This document shows positions 2,904-50,667 of a DNA stretch of 64,000 nucleotides, piece by piece. The first letter of the stretch is position 1. Each line of letters starts with the position of its first letter. A program made the position numbers and the translations under genes. The notes below the pieces were generated by a model. It searched no databases. It had not been told where the DNA came from and worked only from the letters and a program-made list of their open reading frames with translations. Location of the stretch: assembly GCA_964426385.1 (NCBI GenBank), contig CAYRQF010000004.1, forward strand, positions 12,573-76,572, written 5' to 3'. Source of the DNA: an uncultured Candidatus Saccharibacteria bacterium. Its GTDB lineage: Bacteria; Patescibacteriota; Minisyncoccia; Phycocordibacterales; CSBR16-119.

Positions 2904-2910
2904 AAGTCTT

Positions 2911-4440: not shown

Positions 4441-4630
4441 CTAGGGGTTCCAAAAGCTTGCCCGGACACCTATTATTTCATCATTTTGCTTTTTCAAAAT
4501 AATCTAATCAATATTTCGGGTGCAAGTAAGAAAACAGCCTAAAAATACCAATATTCTGGCAAAATAAAAGCCATGAAATAATTGGTGTAAGGGCTTGCGG
4601 AACATTTTTATATATAGTAATATCCGACAC

Positions 4631-5091: not shown

Positions 5092-5697
5092 ATGAGTAAA
5101 ATCATTAAACACAAGGAACAGCGAGTCGGTGTATTCATCGACGCGCAGAACCTATATCACACGGCCAAGAATCTCTTCGGCCACAAAGTCAACTTCGGCA
5201 AAATAGTCGAAGATGCAGTAGCAGGTAGAAAACTCGTTCGAGCCATTTCCTATGTCATCACATCTGAATCTGGCGAAGAACAAGGGTTCTTCGACGCACT
5301 GAACAAAGCGGGCATCGAGACGAAAGCCAAGGACCTCCAGATATTTGCCGGTGGTGCCAAGAAAGCTGACTGGGATGTCGGACTCGCCGTCGACGCTATC
5401 ACTATGGCGCCGAAACTCGACGCCGTCATTCTGCTCTCCGGAGATGGAGACTTCATCCCGATGGTCCAGTATCTCCAGATCCACTCGGGTATCCAGGTAG
5501 AAGTCGCATCATTTGGTAAATCTTCTTCGCAGAAGCTTATCGAAGAATGTGATGACTTCATGGATCTCTCTGAGAATCCAGAGAAATATCTTATCGGATT
5601 CCGTAGCCGCCGTGTCCCACGTGGGGGCCGAGGCCGACCGGGAACCGACAAGCCGGCAACGTCCAATGTGACGATAAGTCCAGCGGTACCTAAGTAG
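5092..5697 (+). CDS. NYN-domain (LabA-like, PIN-like nuclease fold) protein with RGG-rich C-terminal tail
   Basis: VGVFIDAQNLYH...DWDVGLAVDAITMAPKLDAVILLSGDGDFIPMV matches the NYN/LabA (DUF88) signature. The C-terminus is RRVPRGGRGRPG. Confidence 0.7.
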   Translation: MSKIIKHKEQRVGVFIDAQNLYHTAKNLFGHKVNFGKIVEDAVAGRKLVRAISYVITSESGEEQGFFDALNKAGIETKAKDLQIFAGGAKKADWDVGLAVDAITMAPKLDAVILLSGDGDFIPMVQYLQIHSGIQVEVASFGKSSSQKLIEECDDFMDLSENPEKYLIGFRSRRVPRGGRGRPGTDKPATSNVTISPAVPK

Positions 5698-5730
5698 GAT
5701 TTAGGATTTAAGAAGTAAGATTTAAAAGCA

Positions 5731-8219: not shown

Positions 8220-8263
8220 AAATGCGCGCGTTCTCGCTTGTAAACGGCGAGCCGCTCAGTCTA

Positions 8264-8298
8264 GAAAAAATCCGCCCTTCAAAAGGCGGATTTTTTCT
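8264..8298 (+). terminator. Rho-independent terminator after pnp
   Basis: aaaaaatccgcccttcaaaaggcggattttttctgc. Confidence 0.75.
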
Positions 8299-8397
8299 GC
8301 TAAGTCATTTCTAAACAGGTTTTTACTTCGTAGAGAGTCGCCACTTTCCCCCTAGAAGCTAGTCACTAGTCACTAGAACCCTGATATAATTATCACC

Positions 8398-9336
8398 ATG
8401 GCTGACGAACCAACTGATATAAGTAAGGCTTTGGAAAAAGCTGATGAGAGCATTACAACCAAGAATGCTTTGGCGACTAAGCACGCCAAGCAGACAGGTG
8501 AGGTTCGTACGTACGCGACCGATATCGGCGAGATGATGAAGAAGGAAAAAGGCTCCGTTATCAAGATAGCTCTGGCTGAGCAGAAACGTCGCGACGAGTA
8601 CAAGAAAAAGACTGACCCGACCGCAACTCGTAATATTGTCGTTGTTATGCTCGGATTCATCCTCATCGTCGGTGGCATAATGATATTCATTTACACTGTG
8701 ATGAATAGGGCGAGACCTGTAGAGGTGACGAGCTTCGTAACCACACTTCCAAGCTTCATATTTACCGAGAACCAGGTTCAGATCGATGTGACAGAACTCA
8801 ACCGCACAGAGCTCATCGCTGCTATCCGGGCACAGGTGAACAACACCACCCTCGGCGCCGAGACCATTAACAATTTGTTTGTTTCATATCGTGGGGTGAA
8901 CGGACAGGCTCAGATCCCATCGACCTTATTCCTACAGAAACTCGGCGTGGAGATCCCTGATACGTTGGCGCTGAATCTGTATCCAGAATTTTCCCTGGGC
9001 GTATATAGTCTGCCTAGAGGCAATGACCTGTTTATGATATTGCGGGTCAAGGATTTTAATGAGGCGTTCAGTGCAATGCGTGAATGGGAGTCATACATGC
9101 TGACAGAGATGGTCAGGCTATACAGTATCGATACGAAAGATTATGGCAAGGAGATATTTACCAAGGATTTCGAGAACGAGACTATATATAACAAGGAGGC
9201 TAGGATACTCAAGGACGAAGACGGCAAAGCCATACTTTCATACATATTCCTCGATACTCGTACCGTTATGATAACCACTCAGACTGACTCAGTGGGAGAG
9301 GTGATAAAAAGGTTGAATCTACAGACTATTAAGTAG
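8398..9336 (+). CDS. hypothetical single-pass membrane protein
   Basis: Charged N-terminus, then the TM helix IVVVMLGFILIVGGIMIFIYTVM, then an extracytoplasmic domain. TATAAT lies 11 nt upstream of the ATG. Confidence 0.6.
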   Translation: MADEPTDISKALEKADESITTKNALATKHAKQTGEVRTYATDIGEMMKKEKGSVIKIALAEQKRRDEYKKKTDPTATRNIVVVMLGFILIVGGIMIFIYTVMNRARPVEVTSFVTTLPSFIFTENQVQIDVTELNRTELIAAIRAQVNNTTLGAETINNLFVSYRGVNGQAQIPSTLFLQKLGVEIPDTLALNLYPEFSLGVYSLPRGNDLFMILRVKDFNEAFSAMREWESYMLTEMVRLYSIDTKDYGKEIFTKDFENETIYNKEARILKDEDGKAILSYIFLDTRTVMITTQTDSVGEVIKRLNLQTIK

Positions 9337-9366
9337 CTGATAGCTTTTAGCGTATAGCTTATAGAA

Positions 9367-9729
9367 ATGAACGAGACTATTAAATCTCACAAAGAATTGA
9401 TCGTTTGGTAAAAAGCCTTTGAGCTGACTAAAATGATCTATAGGTTGAGTGAGAAATTACCATCAAAGGAAAACTTTAGTCTACAGAATCAAATTAGAAG
9501 AGCTGCCGTGTCCATACCGTCAAACATTGCCGAAGGTCGAAATAGAAAAACTGCGAAGGATTTCCTGCAATTCCTTCGTTTCGCCTTTGGTTCCGTCGCT
9601 GAAGTAGACACTCAGTTGCTTCTGATGAAAGATCTGTATGGAATTAGTTCAAAAGAATGTGATGAATTACTAATAGAGGTAAGCAAGATGCTCAGGTCAA
9701 TGATCGTTAAGCTAGAAGCAAAAAGCTAG
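9367..9729 (+). pseudogene. four-helix-bundle protein (TIGR02436 / Avd-like / 23S-rRNA-IVS-protein family) interrupted by an in-frame TAA at the conserved Gln codon
   Basis: The translation MNETIKSHKELIVW*KAFELTKMIYRLSEKLP...QIRRAAVSIPSNIAEG...FLQFLRFAFGSVAEVDTQL matches the family motif LIVWQKA...RRAAVSIPSNIAEG throughout. The stop at 9419-9421 replaces CAA. The ORF-track call 9433..9729 is the remnant downstream of the stop. Confidence 0.7.
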
Positions 9730-9761
9730 ACGCTATAAGCTACTGTGTTAAAATAGTCACT

Positions 9762-10115
9762 ATGGACATACAAACATTAAGAAGCAAGCTATTAGAAGAA
9801 CGCGCTCAGCTCGAGAAAGAACTCGGCGATCTCGGTGTTCGGGATCCAGAGACGGGTGATTGGGGGGTTGTAGGTGAGCCTGACGGCGAAGAAGCTGACA
9901 AGAACGATATGGGAGACCGTGACGAAGAGTTCGCAACGAAAGCCAATACTCTCGGTCAGTTAGAGCTCCGATATAAAGACGTTAATGACGCATTGGTCAA
10001 TATCGAAAAGAATGATGGTTCATACGGCAAATGTACAATCTCTGGCGAGATGATCGAAGAAGATCGCCTGATGGCGAATCCTGCTGCCAAGACCTGTAAG
10101 GCGCACATGGATTAG
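9762..10115 (+). CDS. DksA/TraR-family-like protein (acidic coiled-coil, degenerate C-terminal zinc finger)
   Basis: The C-terminal GKCTISGEMIEEDRLMANPAAKTCKAH resembles the DksA/TraR C4 finger but has only Cys-x-Cys-x2-His remaining. The N-terminus is an acidic coiled-coil. Confidence 0.5.
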   Translation: MDIQTLRSKLLEERAQLEKELGDLGVRDPETGDWGVVGEPDGEEADKNDMGDRDEEFATKANTLGQLELRYKDVNDALVNIEKNDGSYGKCTISGEMIEEDRLMANPAAKTCKAHMD

Positions 10116-10171: not shown

Positions 10172-10228
10172 CACAACTTTTCTTAAATCTTAATTCCTAA
10201 ATCTTAGATCTCTTGTTAAAATTTATTT

Positions 10229-11733: not shown

Positions 11734-12047
11734 CGCTCCGCAAAACATAAGCTTTCTCAAACCCTCGAAGACGCAAGCGCCGGCTTTTGCCTAAAACGGC
11801 AAAACCGGTTACGTTCTCGGATTTTCGAAAGCTTATATTTTGCTCCGCTACGAGGGAGACGGGATGACCCTTGTAAAAACATCGTCAAGAAACCAGGATG
11901 TTTTGCTTTAGAAGGCCGTATTGTCTGAACAAAGCCAAAGCTTTGTGAGTTTACGGCTCTTCTTAGCCAAAAACATTCTGGTTTTAGGTGTTTTTACACT
12001 GGGTCTTGGGCTTTTGTTACTTTTGCCCCAAGGCAAAAGTAAGAGAG
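11734..12047. repeat. Copy 2 of the structured intergenic repeat family (A-module 11734-11860 plus B-module)
   Basis: The A-module is about 95% identical to 50143-50260. The B-module is about 75% identical to 2713-2903, with covarying hairpins caaagc-caa-gctttg and acttttgc-cccaag-gcaaaagt. Confidence 0.7.
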
Positions 12048-12120
12048 GTGGCCATAAAATATCCAAACCTTTATATTATTTTTTGCAGATGGCTTAAACT
12101 TATACTTATGACGCTAATCA

Positions 12121-28353: not shown

Positions 28354-28447
28354 TTAGCTGATGGCTTATAGCTGTTAGCTTATAGAGAAATAATAAATTC
28401 CTAAAAGCTAAACGCTATCCGCTATAAGCTCGTGTTATAATACATTC
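28354..28447 (+). promoter_or_regulatory. Conserved promoter/operator module (copy A): GCTTATAGC palindromes followed by the extended -10 TGTTATAAT
   Basis: atggcttatagctgttagcttatagag...cctaaaagc...cgctataagctcgtgttataata is shared with 31695-31790. Related half-copies lie at 9337-9366 and 9730-9761. Confidence 0.55.
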
Positions 28448-28867
28448 ATGCGATTCCAAGTTCCGCAATTTATTGATATTGAAGACAAGATTTTTGGACC
28501 TTTTACGTTCAAGCAGTTTGTCTATCTCGCGGGAGGGGCTGGATCAGCCTATGCTATCTGGAAGCTCTTGCCGACACTTATCGCAGTTTTCCTCGTGCTC
28601 CCTATAATCGGGCTCGCTCTCGCGCTGACATTTTATAAAGTGAACGGCAAGCCATTTATCGAAGTCTTACAGGCCTATGCTTCGTATTCGACAAAGAGCA
28701 AGCTTTTTATTTGGAAACAGAGAAAGATTGAGAAAAAGAAGAAATTTGCCGAAGCTCCGAAGGAGAGTCGTCATCCGATGTCTAACATCCCTAGACTTAC
28801 CGAGAGCAGGCTGTCGGATATTTCATGGAGTTTGGATGTGCTCGATATGGAGAAGCGCGATAAATAA
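28448..28867 (+). CDS. small two-TM membrane protein (possible VirB3/TcpE-like component)
   Basis: Hydrophobic hairpin FVYLAGGAGSAYAIWKLLPTLIAVFLVLPIIGLALALTFY. A small membrane protein immediately upstream of VirB4 is typical of type IV secretion loci. Confidence 0.35.
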   Translation: MRFQVPQFIDIEDKIFGPFTFKQFVYLAGGAGSAYAIWKLLPTLIAVFLVLPIIGLALALTFYKVNGKPFIEVLQAYASYSTKSKLFIWKQRKIEKKKKFAEAPKESRHPMSNIPRLTESRLSDISWSLDVLDMEKRDK

Positions 28868-28975
28868 TCCCAAAACTGATTTTACTACCACAAAATGATA
28901 ATTTTAAATCACAACACAAAATTGGTCGGATCAGAATTTATTAGCATGATCAAAAATCAGTAACGGGACAAGTAT

Positions 28976-29626
28976 ATGGCATTAAACGCTAAAGCATCAC
29001 AAGATTTTGTTCCGATCAAAGCCATCCAAGATGGTGTGGTGGTCCTCAAGGATGGGGGACTTCGTGCCATTCTTATGGCGTCATCTGTTAACTTGTCGCT
29101 CAAGTCCGAGGATGAACAGACAGCGATCATCATGCAGTTTCAGAATTTTCTGAACACCCTCGATTTTTCACTGCAGATTTGCGTCCAGTCGAGAAAGTTT
29201 AATATTACTTCGTATGTAGGACTTCTCGAAGAGAGACTCAAGGAGCAATCCGAGCCACTTCTCAAGATTCAGACTGAGGAATATATCAAGTTCATCAAAG
29301 AATTTACCGAGTCGACGAACATCATGACGAAACACTTCTTCCTGGTCATCCCGCTCCAGCCACTCCAGTCAGTTAGTGGGTCAGCTACGGGACTCCTGGA
29401 TAAGGTTTTGCCGACTAATAAGAAAGAAAACTTGGCGGAGAAGGAGAAAGCTTTTAGTGAGGAGCGTTCCCAGCTCGAACAGAGAGTCGCCCTGACCGTT
29501 CAGGGGCTTTCGCGATTGGGTATCAGAACTGTTCAGCTCAAAACCGAAGACGAGGTCGAGCTTTTTTACCGAGTGTTCAATCCCGGAGATGCCGAGAGTG
29601 CTATCGATATAACCAAAGGACAATAA
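28976..29626 (+). CDS. hypothetical protein, translationally coupled to the VirB4-like ATPase
   Basis: Its stop TAA is separated by a single nucleotide from the next ATG (caaTAAtATG). Confidence 0.5.
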   Translation: MALNAKASQDFVPIKAIQDGVVVLKDGGLRAILMASSVNLSLKSEDEQTAIIMQFQNFLNTLDFSLQICVQSRKFNITSYVGLLEERLKEQSEPLLKIQTEEYIKFIKEFTESTNIMTKHFFLVIPLQPLQSVSGSATGLLDKVLPTNKKENLAEKEKAFSEERSQLEQRVALTVQGLSRLGIRTVQLKTEDEVELFYRVFNPGDAESAIDITKGQ

Positions 29627-29627
29627 T

Positions 29628-31694
29628 ATGGGAATATTTGATCTTATAAAAGGAACAAAGTCGTCCAAGAATCCGAAGAGGGAAATAATGCCCGTACTGC
29701 CGGAGGAGATTTATAAGGCGGCAACACTGGAGCTCCAGGATATTCTCGCGCCGTCTGCACTCAAAATCTCGCCAAAAGCTCTGAACCTCGGCGATAAAAT
29801 CGCACGTACATACTTCGTCATTTCTTATCCTAGATTTCTCTCAGATAACTGGTTCACCCCGATCATCAACCTCGATAAAATATTTGATATCGCTATCCAT
29901 ATCCATCCTCTCGATACGAACACCATACTCAGGAAATTCCAGAAGAAAGTTGCCGAAGTCCAAAGCCAGGTCAACGTTCGCGAATCCAAAGGTCTCGTCC
30001 GTGACCCTGTCCTCGATACTGCATATCAGGATCTCGAGGGGTTACGCGACAGTCTCCAGCAGGCTCAGGACAAAATGTTCGATGTCGGGCTCTATATTAC
30101 AGTCTACGCAGACTCGATGCAGGAGCTTTCGAAGATAGAGAATGAGATCAAGTCTATACTAGAGGCCAAGCTCGTGTATATCAAGCCGGCACTCTTCCAG
30201 CAGGACGTCGGGTTCGCCTCTGTCGCACCACTCGCAACGGATTTCCTCGCCGTTCATCAGAAGATGAACACAGAACCGCTATCTTCGATATTCCCATTCG
30301 TTTCTTTCGACCTGTCTTCTGACAAAGGGATTCTCTATGGTATCAACCGTCACAACTCTAGTCTTATTATTTTCGATCGCTTCTCTCTAGAGAACTATAA
30401 CTCGGTTACTTTTGCCAAGTCCGGTTCTGGTAAGTCATACTCGACCAAGCTAGAAATCCTCCGAACACTCATGTTTGACTCAGAAGTCATCGTTATCGAC
30501 CCTGAGAGAGAATACGAGTACCTATCCGAGGCCATCGGTGGACGGTATTTCAATATCTCGCTCTCATCTGAGCACCATATCAACCCTTTTGACCTACCGA
30601 TACCAACCGAAGACGAGACTCCAGAGGATGTACTCCGCGCTAACACTATCCAGCTCGTGGGAATGTTTCGTATCATGCTCGGAGGGCTAACTCCGGAGGA
30701 GGATGCGATTATCGACAAGGCAGTGACCGAGACATATGCGCTCAAAGACATTACTTCTGACTCGGATTTTGCGAATATCGAGCCACCACTGCTATCGGAC
30801 TTCGAGATGGTTCTGTCGGGTATCGATGGATCAGAGTCCATCATGACTCGTCTTACTAAGTACACAAAGGGTTCGTGGAAAAATTTCATCAACCAGCCGA
30901 CAAACGTCGACATCAACAAGCGATTTATCGTCTTCTCCGTACGAGACATGGAGGATGACCTAAAACCTGTCGCCATGTATATCGTTACGCACTTCATATG
31001 GAACGCCGTCAGGAAGAATCTGAAGAAACGTCTCCTTATCGTCGACGAGGCCTGGTGGATGATGAAGTCAGAAGATACGGCGTCTTTCCTCTACTCTATC
31101 GCCAAGCGTGGACGCAAATATTTCCTCGGACTCTCAACTATCACTCAGGACGTTAACGACTTCGTGGCGTCTCAGTATGGTATGGCTATCGTCACGAACT
31201 CATCTATGCAACTACTTCTCAAGCAGTCTACTAGTTCAGCAGATGCACTACAGAAAGTGTTCAACCTGACCGATGAAGAGAAGTATCTTTTGCTCGAGTC
31301 AGAGGTAGGAGAGGGTATATTTTTCGCTGGATTGAAACACGTAGCCATAAAAATCATTGCCTCCTATACCGAAGATCAGATCATAACCTCAGATCCATCA
31401 CAGGTGCTCGCTATAAAAAAAGCCAAAGAGGAGTTCCGTGAGGGTGAGAAGGCTTTTCAGCAAGGAGAAACCGAGAGGATTCAAGGAGCGATCGATAGCC
31501 AACCAAAAGACGAGTATATTCCGTCCCAACAGCCAGAACCTGTAAGTCTAGAAAAAGAAATAGGGGATTCGCCAGAAGTTCTGACTCCTACACCAGATAA
31601 AAAGCCAAAAAACGAATCCGACAGTCTCGAAAGCTTCAGCGATGGGTTAGACAAAGAAATCGACGATCTCGAGAAGATGTTTAAAGACTACTAA
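29628..31694 (+). CDS. VirB4/TraE/TcpF-family type IV secretion ATPase (Gram-positive type)
   Basis: N-terminal FVISYPRFLSDNWFTPIINLD motif, Walker A FAKSGSGKSYST, the ...VIVIDPEREYEYL segment, and Walker B LLIVDEAWWMM. Confidence 0.8.
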   Translation: MGIFDLIKGTKSSKNPKREIMPVLPEEIYKAATLELQDILAPSALKISPKALNLGDKIARTYFVISYPRFLSDNWFTPIINLDKIFDIAIHIHPLDTNTILRKFQKKVAEVQSQVNVRESKGLVRDPVLDTAYQDLEGLRDSLQQAQDKMFDVGLYITVYADSMQELSKIENEIKSILEAKLVYIKPALFQQDVGFASVAPLATDFLAVHQKMNTEPLSSIFPFVSFDLSSDKGILYGINRHNSSLIIFDRFSLENYNSVTFAKSGSGKSYSTKLEILRTLMFDSEVIVIDPEREYEYLSEAIGGRYFNISLSSEHHINPFDLPIPTEDETPEDVLRANTIQLVGMFRIMLGGLTPEEDAIIDKAVTETYALKDITSDSDFANIEPPLLSDFEMVLSGIDGSESIMTRLTKYTKGSWKNFINQPTNVDINKRFIVFSVRDMEDDLKPVAMYIVTHFIWNAVRKNLKKRLLIVDEAWWMMKSEDTASFLYSIAKRGRKYFLGLSTITQDVNDFVASQYGMAIVTNSSMQLLLKQSTSSADALQKVFNLTDEEKYLLLESEVGEGIFFAGLKHVAIKIIASYTEDQIITSDPSQVLAIKKAKEEFREGEKAFQQGETERIQGAIDSQPKDEYIPSQQPEPVSLEKEIGDSPEVLTPTPDKKPKNESDSLESFSDGLDKEIDDLEKMFKDY

Positions 31695-31790
31695 CAGAGC
31701 TTACAGCGTATGGCTGTTAGCTTATAGAAATTCCACAAAATACCTAAAAGCAATAAGCTATACGCTAAAAGCTCGTGTTATAATATTTCC
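31695..31790 (+). promoter_or_regulatory. Conserved promoter/operator module (copy B)
   Basis: atggctgttagcttatagaa...cctaaaagcaataagctatacgctaaaagctcgtgttataata is homologous to 28354-28447. Confidence 0.55.
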
Positions 31791-32384
31791 ATGCCAAATA
31801 CCAAAAATGATGATGGGAATTCTATAAACCAGAATGATAAGACTACGCTCCATGGAGCTGGAGTCGACCTATCCGACACACCAGTCGAACCAGAGTCAGA
31901 AGGTGAAAAGATTGTCGACATAGACGGATCGATTCCTTTGGGGAGTGACCCAGATCTAGAGAAGTCCGGAGTCAAATTTGTAGAGGCCGATGTGCCTGTA
32001 ACAGACCTATCAGCGTTAGCCGAGAAAAAGGCCAAGACCGTAAGCTCAGCCGCCAAAGACCTCGAAGCAGAATTCCGGTCTGAGCTTGCTGATTTTAAGG
32101 GACCACTCAAGCCTGATGGTGAGAAAGCCGTTATGGAAAAAAGCGGAACACTGCGATCGATGCTTACTTTGGTCCGGGAGAAGCTCGGTCTGAAGAAGAA
32201 GACAGTAAAGTCAGAACTCGAGAGTCTAAAAAAGATGAAAGATGCTATCACCAAAGACATCACAACGATAAAAGAGCTCGAAGAGTCCGAAAACAAGATC
32301 AATACAGAGCTTGGTAAAATCGATGAGATAAAGAAAGAAGTAGAGGAGATAGAGAAGGACTTGGCGGATGATCTAAATAAATAA
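31791..32384 (+). CDS. hypothetical acidic coiled-coil protein
   Basis: K/E-rich heptad-like C-terminal half. Confidence 0.5.
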   Translation: MPNTKNDDGNSINQNDKTTLHGAGVDLSDTPVEPESEGEKIVDIDGSIPLGSDPDLEKSGVKFVEADVPVTDLSALAEKKAKTVSSAAKDLEAEFRSELADFKGPLKPDGEKAVMEKSGTLRSMLTLVREKLGLKKKTVKSELESLKKMKDAITKDITTIKELEESENKINTELGKIDEIKKEVEEIEKDLADDLNK

Positions 32385-32388
32385 AATC

Positions 32389-33375
32389 ATGAAGGCTTTG
32401 CAAATTATAAAATTGAGTGTAGTCGGATATATTTTTCTTGCACCTCTTTTTATATTTGCTCAAATGCCAGGTATAGAACAATCTTTTAGTTTGTCTTTTT
32501 CTCCACAGAACCCTAGCCCTGGAGAGTTGGTAACATTTGGGGTTTCCGCATATGAGTTCAATATAGATTTAGCAAACATCGTTTGGAGTGTCGATGGCAA
32601 ATCCGTTAAATCAGGTAAGGGGGTCAAAGGATTCACGTTTGAAGCCCCTGCCAATGGTAAATCTAGCACCATCTCTGTTGTGGTGTCGCCAGCCACTGGG
32701 ACCCCTATAGAGAAAAGCATAACCATTTCTCCTGCAGACATCGATCTCATATATGAGGTAATGGATGGTTACGTCCCGCCTTTCTACCGAGGAAAGATAC
32801 TGCCGATAAAACAGAGTCAGATCAAGGTGGTGGCTCTCCCGAACGTGAAGACGATGACAGGTGGGACAGCTAAAGCAAAAGATTTCGTATATACATGGCG
32901 CAAGGATAGTGAGAACCTCCCAGGACAGTCAGGGTTTGGACGCAGTAGTGTTACTTTTGTAAATGAGATACTCGACCGTGGAAATACTCTCGAGGTCTCA
33001 GCGACAAACGGTCTCAAGAAAGTTGACGGGGCGATAGTTATTAATTATCTCGAGCCGGAAATACTTTTTTATGAATATGACATATTGACCGGAGTTAAAT
33101 ACCAGCGAGCATTTAGGTCAGGAGAGAATATTAAGCAGCCAAAACTTAGCATCATTGCAGAGCCGTACTTTCTGTCACGGGACTTTATGCCGAACAAGGA
33201 TATCGCGGGCACTTGGATGCTAAATGGTCAGAAGGCTACTCCTGTCGCCAAGAACAATCTTATTATCAATACCAGCGCAACGTCTGGCAAAGTCGATATA
33301 AGTTTCGAGTATAACGAGGCGAAACGACTGTTTCGTAGTTTTAAGAAATCACTGAGTCTTAACTTGGTCAACTAG
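32389..33375 (+). CDS. secreted hypothetical protein
   Basis: Signal peptide/TM IIKLSVVGYIFLAPLFIFAQ. The composition is beta-rich. Confidence 0.55.
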   Translation: MKALQIIKLSVVGYIFLAPLFIFAQMPGIEQSFSLSFSPQNPSPGELVTFGVSAYEFNIDLANIVWSVDGKSVKSGKGVKGFTFEAPANGKSSTISVVVSPATGTPIEKSITISPADIDLIYEVMDGYVPPFYRGKILPIKQSQIKVVALPNVKTMTGGTAKAKDFVYTWRKDSENLPGQSGFGRSSVTFVNEILDRGNTLEVSATNGLKKVDGAIVINYLEPEILFYEYDILTGVKYQRAFRSGENIKQPKLSIIAEPYFLSRDFMPNKDIAGTWMLNGQKATPVAKNNLIINTSATSGKVDISFEYNEAKRLFRSFKKSLSLNLVN

Positions 33376-33377
33376 CA

Positions 33378-34958
33378 ATGCAGAGCTCACTAAAGAAAAT
33401 TTTTATACTTTCCACTATACTCCTCATCGCAGGATTCATTTTCTCTAGGCCGGTATCTGCTCAGAACGCGAACTGCAACGTCATCGATGCGGACATACGA
33501 CATAACATTACGAATGTTTTAGATCCATCGGGGGACGAAGACGGAGATGGCGAAACTAACTTCCAGGAGGAATTCTTTGTCGACGGTAATCCGCCCCTCG
33601 TATATCTCGATATAAAAACCCTCGGTTGTATAGACACTGACGATGTCTACGATATGCAGCTTTCTCTGACAGAGACAGATATACCACCAGTTATAGATCC
33701 TAACGATAACGTCGACGATATCATTGAACTGGACGATTGGGAAATAAACGTCGAAGACAATAATGACTTTACTGTAGTTTATCTCGCGGGGGAAGATGAG
33801 TGCGGAGGAGGTGGAGAGCCAGATTGTCAGTACCATATCGAGACAGACGATGGAAATTCTTCTAATGATCCTTGGAGCGGTCTTTGGTACAGTTGCGATG
33901 TTACCTGCGAAGAAGATTGGGCATACATAGGTATGATTCCTTACGGTCAGAACCACCCTCAGGATACAGCAGGGAATAATACTAATACGAATACTAGCCT
34001 AGGTACCTTGGCGTCAGATGCATACCTCGCACCTCTCCCAGGACTTGAGGGGCAACCCGGAACACTGAACGGTTTCCTCGAGGGACTATTCCAGGTGCTC
34101 ATAGTCGTGGCCGGACTTCTCGCCATGATTATGCTCGTAGTTGGAGCCATAACATATCTATCGAGTGATGCGTTTAGTGGCAAGACTGAGGGCAAAGACA
34201 TGATGTTGTCTGCGGTATTCGGCCTCATTCTCGCACTTGGCGCCTGGGTTATCATAAACGCCATCAATCCGAACCTCGCATCAAATCTCGGTATCACTAT
34301 CCCAGTCGCAAGACTGTCTATGCTTGAAGGAGATTCAGCCGTTTACTCTCCCGGGGCGACAAGCTCAGAAGGTGGAACAATTACAGGGTTCAGTTTGCCC
34401 ACAGATATCGGGCTCTATTGCCCGCTTTCGGGTGGATCAGGGCAAGTGCCGGCTATTATCGACAGCTTCGTCGGTAAGGTGGCATATCGATGGGGAGGTA
34501 AGGGCGGCCCTTTGCCAGCTGGACAGAATTACCCACTCAGTCCTTTTGAGACAGAGAACCCCTTTAAGTGTACAGATGATACGGGTGCGCAGGTTCCATG
34601 TAATACGTTCTGTCCGTCAGGAAATGCTTGTTTAGATTGCTCAGGATTTACGAACCATGTTAGGAAATGTGCTGGACTTCCATACTTTGCAACGGGGACA
34701 TACGGCATGACCCAGGAAGCCTCAGCCGAAACAGTTGAGATGAATACGCTTAACGCTACTGGTACACAGATAGGGAGCTATGTTTTGGTCCCGGGCGATA
34801 TACTTGTTTGGAATGGTCACGTCGTCATCTATTATGGTAATGGCAAGATAGCAGAATCTTCTGGAGGTACTCAGGGTCGCGCCAAGAACGGTAACGTGAA
34901 CCTGTCTAGTATCAAGAAATACAAGAACAAGATAACGCATATAATAAAAGTCCAATAA
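33378..34958 (+). CDS. secreted protein with pilin-like double-TM hairpin and C-terminal NlpC/P60 (C40) cell-wall hydrolase domain
   Basis: Signal peptide. Mid-protein hydrophobic hairpin LFQVLIVVAGLLAMIMLVVGAITYL...MMLSAVFGLILALGAWVIINAI resembling VirB2/TrbC pilins. C-terminal YRWGGKG...LDCSGFTNHV...GDILVWNGHVVIY carries the NlpC/P60 Cys-His signature. Confidence 0.6.
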   Translation: MQSSLKKIFILSTILLIAGFIFSRPVSAQNANCNVIDADIRHNITNVLDPSGDEDGDGETNFQEEFFVDGNPPLVYLDIKTLGCIDTDDVYDMQLSLTETDIPPVIDPNDNVDDIIELDDWEINVEDNNDFTVVYLAGEDECGGGGEPDCQYHIETDDGNSSNDPWSGLWYSCDVTCEEDWAYIGMIPYGQNHPQDTAGNNTNTNTSLGTLASDAYLAPLPGLEGQPGTLNGFLEGLFQVLIVVAGLLAMIMLVVGAITYLSSDAFSGKTEGKDMMLSAVFGLILALGAWVIINAINPNLASNLGITIPVARLSMLEGDSAVYSPGATSSEGGTITGFSLPTDIGLYCPLSGGSGQVPAIIDSFVGKVAYRWGGKGGPLPAGQNYPLSPFETENPFKCTDDTGAQVPCNTFCPSGNACLDCSGFTNHVRKCAGLPYFATGTYGMTQEASAETVEMNTLNATGTQIGSYVLVPGDILVWNGHVVIYYGNGKIAESSGGTQGRAKNGNVNLSSIKKYKNKITHIIKVQ

Positions 34959-34962
34959 TCTC

Positions 34963-36588
34963 ATGCAAAACAAAAAACTTTTCAAAATTCTAGGACTCAT
35001 CGCACTTTTTCTCCTCATTATTTTCTCATGGGTGGTTATACGCGATGCCCAAAGGAAAAAGATTCTTAACACTCCGACACCGACAGGACTCGAGAATCCT
35101 TTTGGTGTGAGTCCTGACGGAGAAGGGTTTCCTCGAAGCGGGGAGGACGATGTCGACATCGGTACTCCCGATGAGACACCAGTAACAGGGGGGACTACAG
35201 GGACTAGCGTCATAGTTGTCGAGGATAATCCGGCCCTCAAACAACTATATACGAAACCCGTCGCGGGATTCACTTTCTGGAACGAAGAGCGAGAGCTACC
35301 AGAGGAACTCTCGACGACACCATCCGCATCGGTTGTCGAGGTTTATGATTTCTCAGGCTACAAAACAGTACGATTCGGCGACAAAGCTGACGAGATAGTG
35401 ACTATCAAGACTGTATTAAATAGGCAGACTCCAAGCCCGGGTCTCATCATCGACAGCAATTACGACACAGACATGAAGAACGCCGTCGTAGATTTCCAGA
35501 ACAGAAATGGTCTCGGAGGAGATGGTGTAATTGGGCCAAAGACTTATGCCAAATTCAATAGTTTTCAGGGTATCACCACGTTCTCTTCTGTAAAGAAGCC
35601 GATAAACACAGAGACGGTACCGATGGTTCGCTTCGTTGATGCCGGATCGGGCATCATGTCTGATCAAGCAATTCGAAAAGCAGAAGAGGTGCGCAAGATT
35701 ACTACGGTGTCGGTTCCCAGGGTAGCTGAAGCATTCTTTGATAATACAAAAAATAACGTTGTGATGAGATATGTCAAAGATAATGTCATCCAGACTTATG
35801 TAGCCAAACTTACTTTTGCCAAGATTGACCCCAACCTCACCTGGGCTGAGAAGGAGGCCATAACCAAGATTGCCGAGGTTACGGGCGAGTTTCTACCAGA
35901 GAACATCGACACTGTCGCGATGTCTCGCGACAAAAAGAGTTTGTTTTACATGACGCGAGTCGGTAGTGGTTCAGCCGGGCTCGTATATAACTTTTCGAGT
36001 AAGACCAAGAAGCAGGTATTCGACTCACCACTTCGAGAGTGGCTCATCGACTGGGGTAATGATATAAAAGTAAATCTCACAACAAAGGCTTCAGGTCAGG
36101 CTCTCGGGTATTCGTTTGTTCTCGACACGAAGACGGGTTCTTTCTCTAAGACTCTCGGAGGGGCAAACGGGCTCACGACTCTAATGAGTCCAGATGGTAA
36201 GAAGGTTCTGTACGCTGAAGCAACTGGAGGAAGCCTTTCTACATATGTCACCGAGCTCAGTACTGGCAAGAAAACTTCCATATCTCCATCTGCCATGCCA
36301 GAGAAGTGTGTTTGGACACGAGACTCAAAAGCCATATACTGTGCCGCCCCGATCAAGAGCGTATCGTTTGCCTATCCCGACGATTGGTATAAGGGAAAGG
36401 TAAGCTTCAGTGATGCACTGTGGATGATCGACGCTACAGACTATGTCGGTAACATAGAGTATGATTTCAAATCAAAAAACGGCGTTGATGTGGACGCCAT
36501 GAATCTCCAGCTCCGGGATGAGGAGGACTACATAGGCTTCATCAACAAGAAAGATGGAAGTCTCTGGGGACTAGATTTATCGAGATAG
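34963..36588 (+). CDS. exported protein with peptidoglycan-binding (PG_binding_1-like) motif and TolB-like beta-propeller region
   Basis: N-terminal TM. NYDTDMKNAVVDFQNRNGLGGDGVIGPKTYAKF matches the PG-binding helical-bundle motif. C-terminal repeats such as SPDGKKVLYAEATGGSLSTYV resemble TolB/WD40-like blades. Confidence 0.5.
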   Translation: MQNKKLFKILGLIALFLLIIFSWVVIRDAQRKKILNTPTPTGLENPFGVSPDGEGFPRSGEDDVDIGTPDETPVTGGTTGTSVIVVEDNPALKQLYTKPVAGFTFWNEERELPEELSTTPSASVVEVYDFSGYKTVRFGDKADEIVTIKTVLNRQTPSPGLIIDSNYDTDMKNAVVDFQNRNGLGGDGVIGPKTYAKFNSFQGITTFSSVKKPINTETVPMVRFVDAGSGIMSDQAIRKAEEVRKITTVSVPRVAEAFFDNTKNNVVMRYVKDNVIQTYVAKLTFAKIDPNLTWAEKEAITKIAEVTGEFLPENIDTVAMSRDKKSLFYMTRVGSGSAGLVYNFSSKTKKQVFDSPLREWLIDWGNDIKVNLTTKASGQALGYSFVLDTKTGSFSKTLGGANGLTTLMSPDGKKVLYAEATGGSLSTYVTELSTGKKTSISPSAMPEKCVWTRDSKAIYCAAPIKSVSFAYPDDWYKGKVSFSDALWMIDATDYVGNIEYDFKSKNGVDVDAMNLQLRDEEDYIGFINKKDGSLWGLDLSR

Positions 36589-36613
36589 ATTTAAGATTTA
36601 GGAAGTAGGATTT

Positions 36614-36648
36614 AAGAAGAAACCCGCCATTGGCGGGTTTCTTCTTCT
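36614..36648. terminator. bidirectional Rho-independent terminator between convergent genes
   Basis: gaaacccgccattggcgggtttcttcttc, flanked by gatttaag/cttaaatc repeat arms. Confidence 0.7.
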
Positions 36649-36670
36649 CTTAAATCTTAAATCCTAATTC

Positions 36671-37261
36671 TTACTTCTTAGTTACAGGCTTGATCATTAT
36701 CTTGTCTACGATTCCGTATTTCTTGGATTCTTCGGCATCCATCCAGAAGTCACGGTCTACGTCTTTGGCCACCTTCTCTTCTTTTTGGCCAGTTGCTACT
36801 GAGAGCATCTTTATCATCTTGTTCTTAATCTTGATGATATTCTCTGCTGTGATGAGGATATCTGACGCTTGACCTGATACTCCACCGAGAGGTTGATGGA
36901 TTAACACTTCGGCATTCGGGAGGATGAACCTTTTGCCCTTCTGACCCTGGGAAAGTATCCAGGCTCCCATCGAGGCGGCGACACCGACACAGATGGTGCT
37001 GACCTCAGGTTTGATGTGGTTCATCGTGTCTACGATAGCCATACCTGCGGAAACAGATCCACCGGGGGAGTTGATGTATAGGCTTATTTCTTTCTTCGGG
37101 TCCTCTGACTCGAGGAATAGCATCTGGGCGACAATCGTATTCGCCATCTGATCATTCACCTCGCCAGTCAGGAATATGATGCGCTCGCGTAGGAGTCTCG
37201 AGTAGATGTCGTATGCCCGTTCTCCGAAAGGGGACTTCTCGATCACTGTTGGGATTAGCAT
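36671..37261 (-). CDS. clpP: ATP-dependent Clp protease proteolytic subunit
   Basis: Catalytic-triad context [14 protein letters not shown]...AASMGAWIL...HQPLGG, and the classic position downstream of tig. Confidence 0.95.
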
Positions 37262-43307: not shown

Positions 43308-46300
43308 ATGTCATTTCTAAGAAGTAAGATTTTCGTAGCAATATTCTCGATGCTCGCCATGGTGATCCAGCCATATGCAGTTTTTGCCCAAGACTTCAGC
43401 TGGACTGAGCCATCTGGTCCACCTCTAGACAACAACGTCGCTCCGCCAGTAAACGTCGGACCTGTTGGTCAGACAAAGGATGGCGAGTTCTTCATAATGA
43501 AACAGGGAGGTAACGGTTTTGCCGTGCCTTTCTCTAGTGCATCTTTCGGAACGTATCTGCCTGGTATATTTGGTGGTCCTGCTATCGACTACCCGTCGAC
43601 AGTAAATATTTACGGCAATCTCCTTTACCGTCCAGATGGTACAGCCGGCGCTACTCCACCGGCGGGGCAAGTCCTCAGTACAGGTGTTAACGGCTATGCG
43701 AAATGGGTAGACCCTGCGACTCTCGTCGGTTCTGGATCAACGCTACCGACATGTACTGCTAATCAGGTTCTACAAGTAAACCAGACTGGAACATGGAGCT
43801 GTGGTACGGGTGCTACTAGCGCTACTTTACCAGTCGGAACAAATGGTCAGACACTTCGATATAATTCTACGATGGCACAATGGGAGCCAACCAGTGTTGT
43901 AACCGTAACGGGAACTGGTCCAGCCGTTGTCGGTGTCGGTAGTGGCGCAGGCAATAGTACTGGTGTGATCAACATCATGACCAGCTCGACCGTACCAAAT
44001 GCTCACATTGAGGTGGCGAGTCCAAGTATTATGCTCCGACCAGGGAGTTCTCCTATTCAGGCTGGACAGGTCCTCACTTCTACTACGACTCAGGGTCACA
44101 TCGGCTGGGTAGACCCGATCACTCTCCTCGGATCGCTACTACCTAACGGTACATCAGGACAAACTTTTGTTCACAATGGCACTAACTGGACCGCGACAGA
44201 TAAGCTTACGCATTCTCAGGCATCAGTAGCTATTCCAGCTCCATATGAAGGAGACTTCAATCCAGACGGATTCATGAGTAAGATTACAAACGATGTGTTT
44301 ATGCTAGACACCGCGAAGGCTAGCTTGGGAAGAGCGGGGCAAGGGTATGTCAATATATATGGACAGAATGCTGGCGCTCTCTCGAACAATTTTACGTTCA
44401 CACCGATGGTTGGTCAGACTCAAAATGTAAACTTTTTTAGTGATAATGTTAAATTTGCCGGACCATTTCAGAATAATCAGTGGGATAGCAAGTTAGGCAG
44501 ACTATTGTTTTCCAAGGATGACGAGGGTTCAATCAAATGGTCACGAGGACTTGAATATCAAGAGGATTTCGAAGGCATGTACAACATTTTCGGGGTAGTG
44601 GATGACGCAGACGATGCTGACGATATTCCACTTCTTTGGAGTGAGGGCCTTACATTCCTTCAGGGAGATACGACTATCGACGGACTAACAACTATCAATA
44701 ATGATTTGGTGGTTTCTACAGAAGGGGATTTGTTCCTTGAGGGTGTTAATTATCCTTCTGCTAGTGACAATGTAAAACATCTCTGTTTACGTATGAGTGA
44801 CAAGCAGGTCGTTCGTTGCGAACCACAGAATGTGATTGGAGAGGTCCCGCAAACTGAGACAAGAACAGGAATATTTACAGAAACTTTCGGTCCAGGTTCT
44901 GGTCCTGGGGTGTCCTTCCCTAGACCTAACCAGGCCCCTGGTGATGTGACAGTCAAGATCTGTGGTGCAGGAGGTGGAGGTGGAGGTGGAGGAAGAGGTT
45001 GGGAAGATGGTAGTGAGAACGGCCACGGTGGAGGTGGAGGTGGAGGTGGAGGAAAAGGTGACTGTATAACAACAGATATTACCGGACTTTCTGGAACTGA
45101 ACTAACATGGAATATCGGAAGTGGTGGAACTGGAGGTAGTCCTGGCAATATTGATGTTGTTTATCAGCCACAACCATCACAGACGAATGCTGATACTTCT
45201 GCCTCGAGTGGTCAGCCTGGTGCGGGAACACAAGTCTCTTATGAAGGAAATCAGATAGGTAGTGTTTTGGGTGGTGCCGGGGGTTATGCTGGTGCTAATG
45301 CATCCGGATCTGGTCCAGGTGTCGGTGGAAGTGGTGGATCAAGTAATATAAATATAGCTACAGCTGGGTGGCATAAAGGTTCTAATGGACAGATTAGTAC
45401 AGATAACGCTACAGAAATGGGTCAGGGTGGTGTCGGTGGAAAAGGAGAGAATAATGTCACTGGCCAAGGAGGTAACGGTGGATCAGGCGGACAACCTTTT
45501 AGCGGTTCTCAGTTCGGTAATGCTGGTCAACAGGGTGCTTCTGGTTATGGTGGTGGAGGCGGTGGTGGAGGCTCAGGTAAATGGTATGACTATCTATATA
45601 GTTTAAGTAACCAACAGAACCAGGATAACGCAATACGAAACCACGGCGGTTGGGGTGGTAACGGTGGAAGTGGATATGTTCAGCTTACATACTATGTTTA
45701 CATCGAGGAGCCAGCGGCACCTACAAGTGAAGAATTCTTGGCTAGCGGTTCATTTGATCTATCACAGATACCAACCGACGATCCTAACCTAGATGTTACA
45801 TTTGAAGTTTGGGGTGCGGGCGGAGGTGGCGGAGGTGCAGGTACAGCAACCCCTCCAAGTGGTAGTTATGTAAGACGTGGGGGTGGCGGAGGCGCTGGCG
45901 GATACGGAACTATAACTGTAGACAGATCAGCACTTCCGAACACAGGCACCCTCGCTATTACAGTCGGAAATGGTGGAACAGCGGGTACAATCACAACTTC
46001 TGGAGGTAATGGCGGACAGACTGTGGTAGCAGGAGCAATGTCTATAACTGTTGAAGGAGGAGAAGGTGGAAGTAAGAAAGTTTATGGTCAAACATGTGCT
46101 CCAGTTATTGCACAGGGTGGTGACACTATCTCTGGTGCGGCGTTGACCGCCGGTGGTGACGGTGGTTCATGCGGAGAACCTGCCGTGAATCCACCACCAA
46201 CTGGTTATGGAGGTGGAGGAGTACAGAGTGTTGGCGGATACGGTGGCGGAGGTGTTGGAGCATCAGTTAATTACTTGGGTGCACAGACCGTGGCCCCACA

Positions 46301-46337
46301 GCCTGGCCAGGGAGGACGAGTCTACATCTCCTGGTAA
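43308..46337 (+). CDS. large secreted glycine-rich hypothetical protein (1009 aa) with poly-Gly tracts
   Basis: Signal peptide MSFLRSKIFVAIFSMLAMVIQPYAVFA. Runs of 8-10 consecutive Gly and G-G-x-G repeats, with Thr/Ser/Asn-rich spacers. Ends ...GGRVYISW. Confidence 0.65.
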   Translation: MSFLRSKIFVAIFSMLAMVIQPYAVFAQDFSWTEPSGPPLDNNVAPPVNVGPVGQTKDGEFFIMKQGGNGFAVPFSSASFGTYLPGIFGGPAIDYPSTVNIYGNLLYRPDGTAGATPPAGQVLSTGVNGYAKWVDPATLVGSGSTLPTCTANQVLQVNQTGTWSCGTGATSATLPVGTNGQTLRYNSTMAQWEPTSVVTVTGTGPAVVGVGSGAGNSTGVINIMTSSTVPNAHIEVASPSIMLRPGSSPIQAGQVLTSTTTQGHIGWVDPITLLGSLLPNGTSGQTFVHNGTNWTATDKLTHSQASVAIPAPYEGDFNPDGFMSKITNDVFMLDTAKASLGRAGQGYVNIYGQNAGALSNNFTFTPMVGQTQNVNFFSDNVKFAGPFQNNQWDSKLGRLLFSKDDEGSIKWSRGLEYQEDFEGMYNIFGVVDDADDADDIPLLWSEGLTFLQGDTTIDGLTTINNDLVVSTEGDLFLEGVNYPSASDNVKHLCLRMSDKQVVRCEPQNVIGEVPQTETRTGIFTETFGPGSGPGVSFPRPNQAPGDVTVKICGAGGGGGGGGRGWEDGSENGHGGGGGGGGGKGDCITTDITGLSGTELTWNIGSGGTGGSPGNIDVVYQPQPSQTNADTSASSGQPGAGTQVSYEGNQIGSVLGGAGGYAGANASGSGPGVGGSGGSSNINIATAGWHKGSNGQISTDNATEMGQGGVGGKGENNVTGQGGNGGSGGQPFSGSQFGNAGQQGASGYGGGGGGGGSGKWYDYLYSLSNQQNQDNAIRNHGGWGGNGGSGYVQLTYYVYIEEPAAPTSEEFLASGSFDLSQIPTDDPNLDVTFEVWGAGGGGGGAGTATPPSGSYVRRGGGGGAGGYGTITVDRSALPNTGTLAITVGNGGTAGTITTSGGNGGQTVVAGAMSITVEGGEGGSKKVYGQTCAPVIAQGGDTISGAALTAGGDGGSCGEPAVNPPPTGYGGGGVQSVGGYGGGGVGASVNYLGAQTVAPQPGQGGRVYISW

Positions 46338-50071: not shown

Positions 50072-50142
50072 GGGTCAGGAGTTTTGGTCTGAGGTTTCGT
50101 TCGGACTATACCACGAAAGACTATAATAGTCAAATAGGGCTA

Positions 50143-50260
50143 CGCAAAATGTAAGCTTTCTCAAATCCTCGAAGACGCAAGCGCCGGCTTTTGCCTAAAA
50201 CGGCAAAACCGGTTACGTTCTCGGATTTTCGAAAGCTTACATTTTGCTCCGCAGAGAGGG
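50143..50260. repeat. Copy 3 (A-module only) of the structured palindromic repeat family
   Basis: The outer stem gcaaaatgtaagctttc...gaaagcttacattttgc pairs perfectly and carries compensatory CA-to-TG/AT-to-CA changes relative to copy 2. The 72-nt core is identical to copy 2. Confidence 0.7.
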
Positions 50261-50268
50261 AGTTATTT

Positions 50269-50667
50269 TTAGAGATAAGCCTTTATTTTTTGGGCTATTT
50301 GCTCCTTTTCTCCCTCCTCATACTTTTTGATAGGGGATTCTGGAATAGGCTCGTCATTTGACCTGGGTATCAAGTGTATATGAAGATGATCTGGTACACC
50401 GATCCCGACTATCTCTACCTGTACATAATCACACCCAATACTTGAAATCATGGCAGTAATAATTTCTTTGGACTTTATAATCAAATACTTCAGTAAATCG
50501 TCTGGAACAAACTGAATACGGCCGACTTTTTCTTTGGGCACAAGAAGCAGATGACCCTTGGATTGTGGGCTAATATCTATAAAGGCTAGACATTTATCAT
50601 CCTCATAGACTTTGGTGGCCGGTATCTCGCCATCAATAATTTTCTCAAAAACGGTTTTCATACCCAC
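50269..50667 (-). CDS. HIT-family (histidine triad) nucleotide hydrolase
   Basis: HLHIHLIP histidine-triad motif. About 130 aa, typical of HINT proteins. Confidence 0.85.
   Translation of the reverse strand: MGMKTVFEKIIDGEIPATKVYEDDKCLAFIDISPQSKGHLLLVPKEKVGRIQFVPDDLLKYLIIKSKEIITAMISSIGCDYVQVEIVGIGVPDHLHIHLIPRSNDEPIPESPIKKYEEGEKEQIAQKIKAYL

Follow-up and report, generated by a model that had tools for sequence, protein, structure and literature searches.

A family of dispersed palindromic repeats at gene 3' ends in a Saccharibacteria contig and its relatives, and their possible role as 3'-end hairpins

In E. coli, the repetitive extragenic palindrome (REP) is a short imperfect palindrome with a conserved GTAG-type tetranucleotide, and the REP-associated tyrosine transposases (RAYTs) are IS200-like Y1 transposases, whose single-copy genes are usually flanked by REP repeats. 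REPs are found in tandem (~40%), convergent (60%) and divergent (1%) intergenic regions and act as terminators and stabilisers (bioRxiv 10.64898/2026.03.23.713779). The related REPINs, hairpins formed by paired REPs, combine conserved ends with a less conserved spacer and show compensatory changes (PMC3116915). [quoted passage not shown] Here, we analysed a DNA stretch of 64,000 nt (the window) from an uncultured Candidatus Saccharibacteria bacterium, in which a first-pass annotation, made from the sequence letters alone, had flagged a repeat between a HIT-family gene and a gene for a protein with a type IX secretion system (T9SS) sorting domain. This repeat (copy 3) belongs to a family of hairpins placed just behind stop codons, an apparently undescribed example of dispersed palindromic intergenic repeats. 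On balance, these REP/REPIN/MITE-like elements probably serve as 3'-end hairpins, i.e. as terminators or insulators, and may spread by copying or conversion. The genomes of Patescibacteria, also known as the candidate phyla radiation, are small, tightly packed and usually described as poor in repeats and mobile DNA, and we found no description in the literature of palindromic repeats or MITEs of this sort in Saccharibacteria or Patescibacteria. Copy 3 is composed of the following parts:

50139–50262, plus strand: whole repeated block (A module), consisting of GCTACGC, the hairpin, GCTCCGC and then AGAGAGGGAG
50139–50145 and 50246–50252, plus strand: direct repeat GCTNCGC, as GCTACGC at the 5' side and GCTCCGC at the 3' side; same layout in eight complete members of the family
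50144–50160, plus strand: 5' arm of the outer stem, GCAAAATGTAAGCTTTC, complementary to the 3' arm; the stem covaries over eight members
50231–50247, plus strand: 3' arm of the outer stem, GAAAGCTTACATTTTGC, perfect complement of the 5' arm
50161–50230, plus strand: 'type 2' interior, with a second helix (50163–50168/50223–50228) and an apical hairpin (~50183–50213) according to the predicted fold

The hairpin proper comprises 104 nt (50144–50247) and is closed by a perfect outer stem of 17 bp. RNA folding yielded −55 kcal/mol as compared to −27.8 ± 3.2 kcal/mol for dinucleotide shuffles (z = −8.4), none of 200 shuffles being as stable. Thus, a repeat copy with a perfectly pairing stem is indeed present at the flagged position, and it consists of the A module alone, as the annotation had stated: the ~190-nt B module, which accompanies the two other copies in the window, is missing here. 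Comparison with copy 2 revealed that 50139–50262 corresponds to 11735–11858 over 124 nt with 8 differences (94% identity), beyond which the similarity ends; the interiors of the two copies differ at a single position, 50166. A pattern of the 70-nt core occurs twice in the window, with zero occurrences expected by chance. The identical core that had been reported for copies 2 and 3 exists, measuring 73 nt (50167–50239 = 11763–11835) rather than 72. Likewise, the change of the outer stem from copy 2 to copy 3 preserves perfect pairing as claimed, but involves three rather than four substitutions, namely CA to TG in the 5' arm and a single T to C in the 3' arm. The outcome is one true compensatory exchange (A-T to G-C) and one C·A mismatch repaired to T-A, while the C to T change at 50166 mends a second C·A mismatch in the next helix. 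The copy 3 block has an identical sequence in the same species from another sample (L029).

The family comprises about 14 distinct members. Three reside in the window, all on the plus strand, and the others in related Patescibacteria contigs, probably of the Saccharibacteria:

2583–2716, plus strand: copy 1 (A module, 'type 1' interior), hairpin 2587–2700, 6 nt after the rplS stop
11735–11858, plus strand: copy 2 (A module, 'type 2' interior), hairpin 11740–11843, 6 nt after the comM stop
L007 (= L009 = L011), a metagenome-assembled genome labelled Candidatus Saccharibacteria: member between greA and lysS, matching the strict two-ended pattern
L013: members at two sites, PGK/HIT and peptidoglycan (PG)-binding gene/ClpP
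L017 and L018: members at the HIT 3' end, 3' ends only, at contig starts
L020: member after comM, 5' end only, at the contig start
L022: members at three sites, namely behind an M23 peptidase gene (minimal form of 32 nt), rplS (full form) and comM (remnant)
L023: member after an NYN-domain gene, plus a remnant after comM
L027: member after comM

All these share the constant ends 5'-GCTNCGC-AAAAY ... RTTTT-GCTNCGC-3', that is, an inverted repeat inside a constant 7-nt direct repeat, often followed by (TA)NGAGGGA. The outer stem of 14–27 bp surrounds an interior of 0–100 nt, so that members measure 32–136 nt overall. Interiors differ among members and belong to unrelated types, but they always self-pair into one or two inner hairpins, some of which are classical bidirectional terminators. 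Copy 1, for example, has the ends alone in common with copies 2 and 3, and its unrelated interior forms a hairpin nonetheless; the folds of the window copies reach z-scores of −5 to −8.4. For analysis of covariation, the 16 terminal nucleotides from either end of eight complete members were joined and the stem pairs counted. Standard pairs occupy 97.7% of the cells and 9 of 16 pairs change on both sides, a level of covariation that was reached by none of 500 shuffles and by no slid register. The layout as a whole is distinctive in that constant 7-nt direct repeats and invariant short arms frame freely exchanged interiors just past stop codons.

The strict two-ended pattern was scanned against genome (185,579 representative genomes) and metagenome collections, a scan that looser variants would escape, and returned one real further species; L008 and L010 are chance matches in coding sequence. 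The window's own genome is absent from the matches of both DNA scans, and L029 was reached via protein matches. A relaxed palindromic pattern gave only chance matches in viral contigs, and the phage collection yielded no match. Searches of the window against Rfam returned only two tRNAs at the gathering threshold and, for the three copies at E ≤ 10, nothing above 18 bits; as ARAGORN gave no match either, tmRNA, SRP RNA, 6S RNA and other known RNAs were ruled out. A DNA uptake sequence was rejected because the end motif is confined to the three elements in the window, and a conserved small open reading frame in the 3' flank because reading frames differ between copies. A partial resemblance of GCTNCGC to a tRNA-Ser end in L022 had raised the idea that the motif derives from the 3' end of a tRNA, which was set aside.

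Without exception, the members occupy gene 3' ends in intergenic regions of the tandem or convergent type, and a divergent setting was never observed. For 11 of the 12 members with known flanks, the GCTNCGC-AAAAY end is separated by 2–13 nt from the native stop of a preceding gene in the same orientation (rplS, comM, greA, PGK, PG-binding, M23 or NYN), while in L013b and L018 the other end of the element abuts the stop codon of a convergent gene. For rplS and comM, filled and empty sites show the same C-terminus and stop codon. Related loci at HIT/RecJ and rplS/xer, fetched via RecJ and Xer homologues, revealed a turnover of the elements between relatives. The rplS/xer spacer carries the element in the window and in L022, but an ordinary terminator in L020, L021, L023 and L027 (Xer 87–98% identical). 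At the comM 3' end, the 5' motif is kept in all six relatives, where it is followed by three different interiors or persists only as a remnant. Interior types recur across loci: type 1 is present behind rplS in the window, behind comM in L020 and behind the NYN gene in L023; type 2 behind comM and HIT in the window; and type 3 behind HIT in L017, rplS in L022 and comM in L027. In the last of these, the inner hairpins have the opposite order (L027 1468–1618, minus strand, versus L022 12655–12800, minus strand), an inversion relative to the asymmetric ends as expected of recombination between long inverted arms. Moreover, three independent short-read contigs end inside an A-family element (L017 1–60, L018 1–30, L020 1–60), which suggests that the repeats break assemblies of these genomes and is a hint of their multi-copy status. 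From the interior types shared across loci and the 94% identity of copies 2 and 3, we infer that members are copied or converted from one another, with the conserved ends as anchors. Such events may keep the family uniform and spread it within genomes, and could also account for why copies 2 and 3 are nearly identical and why the stem appears compensated.

How might these hairpins act? We propose that transcripts of the adjacent gene include the element as their 3' untranslated end; this gene would be HIT (minus strand) in the case of copy 3 and ancestrally also PGK (plus strand). The long hairpin would then stop or attenuate read-through into the next gene and its promoter, and may block 3'-exonucleases; PNPase is encoded in the window. 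Copy 3 could accordingly separate HIT from the following promoter as a terminator or insulator. This proposal is suggested by position and structure, by the replacement of ordinary terminators and by the behaviour of E. coli REPs and of REPINs. The apex of copy 1 (2639–2652) is a textbook bidirectional terminator, with a GC-rich stem-loop and a T-run on both strands, and inner hairpins of L022c and L027 likewise have a GC-rich stem-loop with a T-run. The elements further resemble bidirectional intrinsic terminators in their A-tract/hairpin/T-tract symmetry (GCAAAAY ... RTTTTGC) and their convergent placement, and ordinary terminators occupy the empty orthologous rplS sites. Unlike such terminators, they have total stems of 40–50 bp with an AT-rich base and a lone run of four T that is itself paired, and their invariant ends and unpaired flanks are unnecessary for termination.

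Several observations weigh against a role as 3'-end hairpin. The terminator scan flags none in copy 2, and its sole flag in copy 3 is a weak 5-bp plus-strand hairpin at 50246–50263; a canonical GC-rich stem with U-tract is lacking on the HIT (minus) strand of copy 3. Moreover, copy 3 is the exception to the orientation bias, being opposite to its upstream gene with both neighbours on the minus strand, although it still abuts the stop of this gene, HIT, and has the same orientation as in L013, where PGK on the plus strand precedes it. In L019, HIT is followed directly by a promoter without any hairpin, indicating that the element is dispensable there. The wobble pairs of the outer stem are balanced (2 G·T versus 2 A·C) and show no strand preference, so that DNA could be the selected form; the data are compatible with selection for folded DNA as well as for RNA from one or both strands. 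A comparison of minimum free energies had seemed to favour the minus strand as the strand of action, but was dropped in view of the balanced count of arm against arm. In addition, templated repair from arm to arm can restore the pairing of a DNA palindrome, and therefore the covariation is no proof of function as RNA. Finally, a purely structural role leaves unexplained why ~11 nt are invariant at each end, including the unpaired flanks, while interiors are replaced.

Hairpins and related repeats other than the A family were also observed in the window and its relatives:

8206–8324: 119-nt hairpin with 19-nt perfect arms, beginning in the last codons of the PNPase gene and enclosing a bidirectional terminator (8263–8298); its apex resembles that of copy 1
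36587–36680: nested palindrome of AAGATTTAGGA-like motifs around a terminator, PG-binding gene/ClpP; L013 has an A-family element at the same spot
5692–5720 and 10177–10211: recurrences of the AAGATTTAGGA-like motif, after the NYN gene and upstream of comM, respectively; also found upstream of comM in L020
4951–5030: hairpin with 27-nt arms just past the presumed rpsO (S15) gene, without Rfam match at the gathering threshold
4460–4594: 34-nt imperfect inverted repeat upstream of the presumed rpsO (S15) gene, without Rfam match at the gathering threshold; this could be an autoregulatory leader
L013 9885–9990 and L015 9295–9400: unrelated hairpins of ~100 nt with termini GCGGGGCCAGATTGC... and AAAAACCCTATAAG..., in HIT/RecJ and PGK/HIT spacers

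Long hairpins at gene ends, the B module among them, are frequent in the window, which supports the view that extended hairpins are generally employed as 3'-end structures. The unrelated hairpins in L013 and L015 point to several families of long palindromes in this lineage.

Turnover between close relatives is also what a purely selfish element would show. According to this alternative, which we consider rather unlikely, the repeat is a non-autonomous mobile DNA hairpin of the REPIN or MITE type that is mobilised in single- or double-stranded form by a transposase encoded elsewhere, has no role at the RNA level and is merely tolerated at gene ends. Conserved ends around a free interior, inverted-repeat termini inside a 7-nt direct repeat, presence or absence differing between close relatives, near-identical copies in one genome, contigs breaking inside the element and wobble pairs without strand preference would all fit, and the REPINs provide a parallel (PMC3116915). 

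Like REPs and REPINs, the elements are short non-coding palindromic repeats at gene 3' ends, in tandem and convergent pairs, with two inverted conserved ends, a variable pairing spacer, compensatory changes and locations varying between strains. They differ by the absence of sequence similarity, conserved ends of ~11–17 nt and a far more variable interior. Their end GCTNCGCAAAAYRTAA shows no self-complementarity, their flanks contain CTAC/GTAG only here and there, and the copy number appears low (3 in 64 kb) in a host that is a Patescibacterium with a reduced genome. With bacterial MITEs they have in common a length of ~100–150 nt, terminal inverted repeats, lack of coding capacity, several copies and insertion polymorphism between strains. 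In contrast to MITEs, GCTNCGC is the same at every site, unlike an ordinary target duplication, which varies from site to site, and empty orthologous sites lack it. Correia elements are characterised by core conservation, repeats of 26 bp, duplication of TA, a site for IHF and ends that generate promoters. The repeats described here lack a conserved core, are flanked by an invariable 7-mer and do not include the neighbouring promoter.

The enzyme that a selfish element would depend on did not emerge either. Pfam and NCBIfam scans of the proteins of the 64-kb window revealed no transposase, RAYT or other HUH enzyme, and none was seen in the Pfam listings of the related loci, although no specific search was made there. 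A parent insertion sequence with the same termini was detected neither in the window nor in the related loci; nothing in the phage collection matched, and viral contigs gave only chance matches. Moreover, retention of the 5' motif at the comM site in six relatives looks like long residence rather than repeated hopping, and terminator-like hairpins are frequent in the interiors; both observations argue against a purely selfish element.

The exchange of interiors at fixed sites raises a further possibility, namely a substrate of site-specific recombination. In this scenario, GCTNCGC would be the crossover core and AAAAYRTAA/TTAYRTTTT the arms bound by a tyrosine recombinase, either the Xer-like protein encoded at 2911–3831 or another one, and interiors would be exchanged or inverted as cassettes, similar to integron attC or the folded attachment site of CTX phage. 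The joined form TTATGTTTT-GCTCCGC-AAAACATAA has the classical arm-core-arm layout, interior types swap at fixed sites with one being inverted, and the Xer-like recombinase gene adjoins copy 1. In addition, the half-site recurs in a second palindromic repeat family, the B module, comprising a ~140-nt hairpin and an 11-6-11 palindrome, GTTACTTTTGC-N6-GCAAAAGTAAG, which accompanies two of the copies:

2717–2905, plus strand: B module beside copy 1, long hairpin 2723–2862 and short palindrome 2866–2893
11859–12048, plus strand: B module beside copy 2, 79% identical to that of copy 1, hairpin 11866–12005

The apex of the B-module hairpin is compensated (GAAAGGC..GCCTTTC versus CAAAGC..GCTTTG), and the 11-6-11 palindrome of the module is built from the half-site TTTTGC/GCAAAA that also occurs in the A ends; among 15 related loci, no homologue of this module was found. 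Nevertheless, we consider the recombination scenario improbable. The recombinase is a conserved housekeeping Xer, 70–98% identical across Patescibacteria, and it adjoins such a palindrome or element in the window only, L020, L021, L022, L023 and L027 having no palindrome beside xer. Conservation of the arms does not extend to their YRTAA part (L013a, L022c, L018), the outer flanks are devoid of arm-like symmetry, empty sites lack GCTNCGC, and ordinary recombination between inverted arms of 20–27 bp can yield the inversion.

Integron attC sites are imperfect palindromes of 57–141 nt that follow an open reading frame, have conserved 7-nt ends, often with AAC/GTT, and a variable paired centre. 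The elements described here likewise are palindromes directly after a reading frame with conserved ends and a variable paired centre, but the core RYYYAAC ... GTTRRRY is matched by GCAAAAY ... RTTTTGC at 5 of 7 positions at best, and AAC/GTT is lost in copy 3, which has AAT/ATT. Outer stems are continuous over 16–27 bp with 0–1 mismatch and have no unpaired central spacer or extrahelical bases as found in attC. They follow scattered housekeeping genes rather than forming a cassette array, and the window encodes no integron integrase: its sole tyrosine recombinase scores ~230–240 bits with the XerC/XerD/XerA models, but 132 bits with the integron integrase model, whose cut-off is 265. The dif site of Xer recombinases measures 28–30 bp, consists of two 11-bp arms and a 6–8-bp centre, is present once per chromosome and is often found beside xer in single-recombinase systems. 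In the A module, by contrast, the arms are ~80–110 nt apart. The B-module palindrome was considered as a dif site and ruled out, since two copies in direct orientation surround essential genes and none is present beside xer in L020–L023 and L027. A genomic island bounded by copies 1 and 2 and equipped with an 'integrase' was rejected as well, because the recombinase is the housekeeping Xer and the 9 kb between the copies encode PNPase, S15, NYN, DksA and comM in conserved synteny. Hence, the elements fall entirely outside the definitions of attC and dif, whereas they depart from REP/REPIN and from MITEs in specific features. A bolder variant, to which we assign a low likelihood, holds that the constant ends are recognition or crossover sites of a hairpin-specific recombination or transposition system of Patescibacteria, employing Xer or an unrecognised HUH enzyme, that inserts, exchanges and inverts terminator cassettes directly behind stop codons. 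If true, this would amount to a mechanism of cassette exchange for gene 3' ends in genomes thought to be nearly free of mobile DNA.

The neighbourhood of copy 3 allowed us to address whether the element is linked to the gene that follows it. Three features are relevant here:

50269–50667, minus strand: HIT-family gene (Pfam), whose 3' end is abutted by the element; the element also stands beside the HIT stop in L013, L017, L018 and L029
49055–50071, minus strand: gene for a protein with a Por_Secre_tail (T9SS-type C-terminal) domain according to Pfam and NCBIfam profiles, a neighbour outside the element
50133→50105, minus strand: sigma-70-type promoter of the T9SS-tail gene, TTGACT-17-TATAGT with TG extension, 10 of 12 matches, outside the repeat

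The identities given to these neighbours in the first-pass annotation are correct (HIT, PF01230, E = 1.9e-18; Por_Secre_tail, PF18962 with 30.9 bits and TIGR04183 with 33.4 bits). Its distances need a small correction: the hairpin starts 72 nt rather than 70 nt from the ATG of the T9SS-tail gene, while the proximity to the HIT end holds (21 nt from the stop codon at 50269). From the HIT stop to the −35 box of the T9SS-tail gene promoter, the space is taken up by the 124-nt block of copy 3. A similar promoter box is present in L012 and L019, both devoid of the element. As the promoter lies outside the repeat and is present in element-free L012, the element is not its source. Consequently, from the suggestion that the repeat is a promoter-proximal or terminator element, a position suited to a terminator or 3' untranslated region element stands, whereas a supply of the promoter does not.

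Since it is located upstream of the −35 box, copy 3 is outside the transcript of the T9SS-tail gene, which argues against a cis-regulatory leader of this gene despite the stable conserved structure and the nearby promoter. A stand-alone small RNA gene is hardly better compatible with the data: other copies follow unrelated genes (rplS, comM, greA, PGK, NYN, M23), their interior sequences show no conservation, nothing resembling a promoter is apparent inside or directly upstream of the copies, and Rfam gave no match even at E ≤ 10. We therefore regard both variants as very improbable.

The annotation had also proposed that copy 3 marks the insertion junction of a foreign neighbouring gene, and had suggested comparison of the flanks with syntenic loci. 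This comparison yielded the following arrangements:

L013 (RecJ 76% identical): PGK, element, HIT, RecJ; element present with a different interior and a 27-bp perfect outer stem, no T9SS-tail gene
L015/L016 (RecJ 71%): PGK, HIT, RecJ; element absent, an unrelated hairpin in its place
L019 (RecJ 71%): PGK, 268-aa gene, Por_Secre_tail protein gene, HIT, RecJ; element absent, only 72 nt from the tail-protein gene to HIT
L012 (RecJ 86%): PGK, 249-aa gene, T9SS-tail gene, RecJ; element and HIT both absent
L017 (RecJ 87%) and L018 (RecJ 78%): contig starts inside the element, of which only the 3' end is present, beside the HIT stop
L029 (same species, other sample): gene order as in the window, identical element

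Thus, the T9SS-tail gene is present without the element in two relatives (L012 and L019), the outcome that the annotation had named beforehand as arguing against a link. Conversely, the element resides at HIT in four relatives (L013, L017, L018, L029), and L013 has it without the T9SS-tail gene. The notion of an insertion junction is consequently not borne out, and the element is not linked to the neighbouring T9SS-tail gene. Apart from the adjacency of element and gene, the explanation that a foreign gene inserted here and left a scar or junction could appeal to the slightly higher G+C content of this gene (0.53), a value matched elsewhere in the window. Given that gene and element occur independently, that the gene is flanked by one copy only and that it is syntenic in relatives, the probability of this explanation is close to nil. 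Instead, the locus comparison and the gene's own promoter indicate that the element belongs with the HIT/PGK gene ends, and copy 3 carries no information on the origin of the neighbouring secreted-protein gene.

The T9SS-tail gene itself is a fast-evolving resident of its syntenic slot. Its product shares 30% identity (E = 3e-28) with the syntenic L012 protein, although RecJ is 86% identical between the two, and in the comparison with the Por_Secre_tail protein in the same slot of L019 the tail alone aligns (E = 0.002). The 242-aa partner of the gene has a homologue in L019. It is an observation of its own that a Patescibacterium encodes a protein with Por_Secre_tail, the T9SS type A sorting domain.

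Structured repeats that turn over at gene ends between close relatives imply that the 3' regions of these genomes are dynamic. They could be a cause of assembly breaks and may serve as strain-typing markers. For organisms with few regulators, they possibly provide a means to tune the stability of mRNAs as well as termination. Their unusual location behind stop codons together with invariant ends and unrelated interiors offers a handle on how such elements spread.

Finally, the window contains further features that are separate from the repeat family:

9335–9368, 9706–9762, 28356–28451 and 31698–31794: arrays of TAGCT/TAAGCT motifs directly upstream of TGTTATAAT-type extended −10 boxes
28448–34958: type IV secretion-like cluster encoding a PrgI family protein, a VirB4/TraG-type ATPase and a type IV secretion system pilin fused to NlpC/P60
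23177–27709 and 13518–19040: regions around this cluster with several large open reading frames without Pfam match
43308–46337: gene for a 1009-aa glycine-rich protein with GGAGGT-type tandem codon repeats (Gly_rich_2 in the L012 orthologue), upstream of TIM-PGK and syntenic in relatives

The TAGCT/TAAGCT arrays precede two genes from the type IV secretion-like cluster as well as a DksA-like one, and may represent a shared regulatory or UP-like element.

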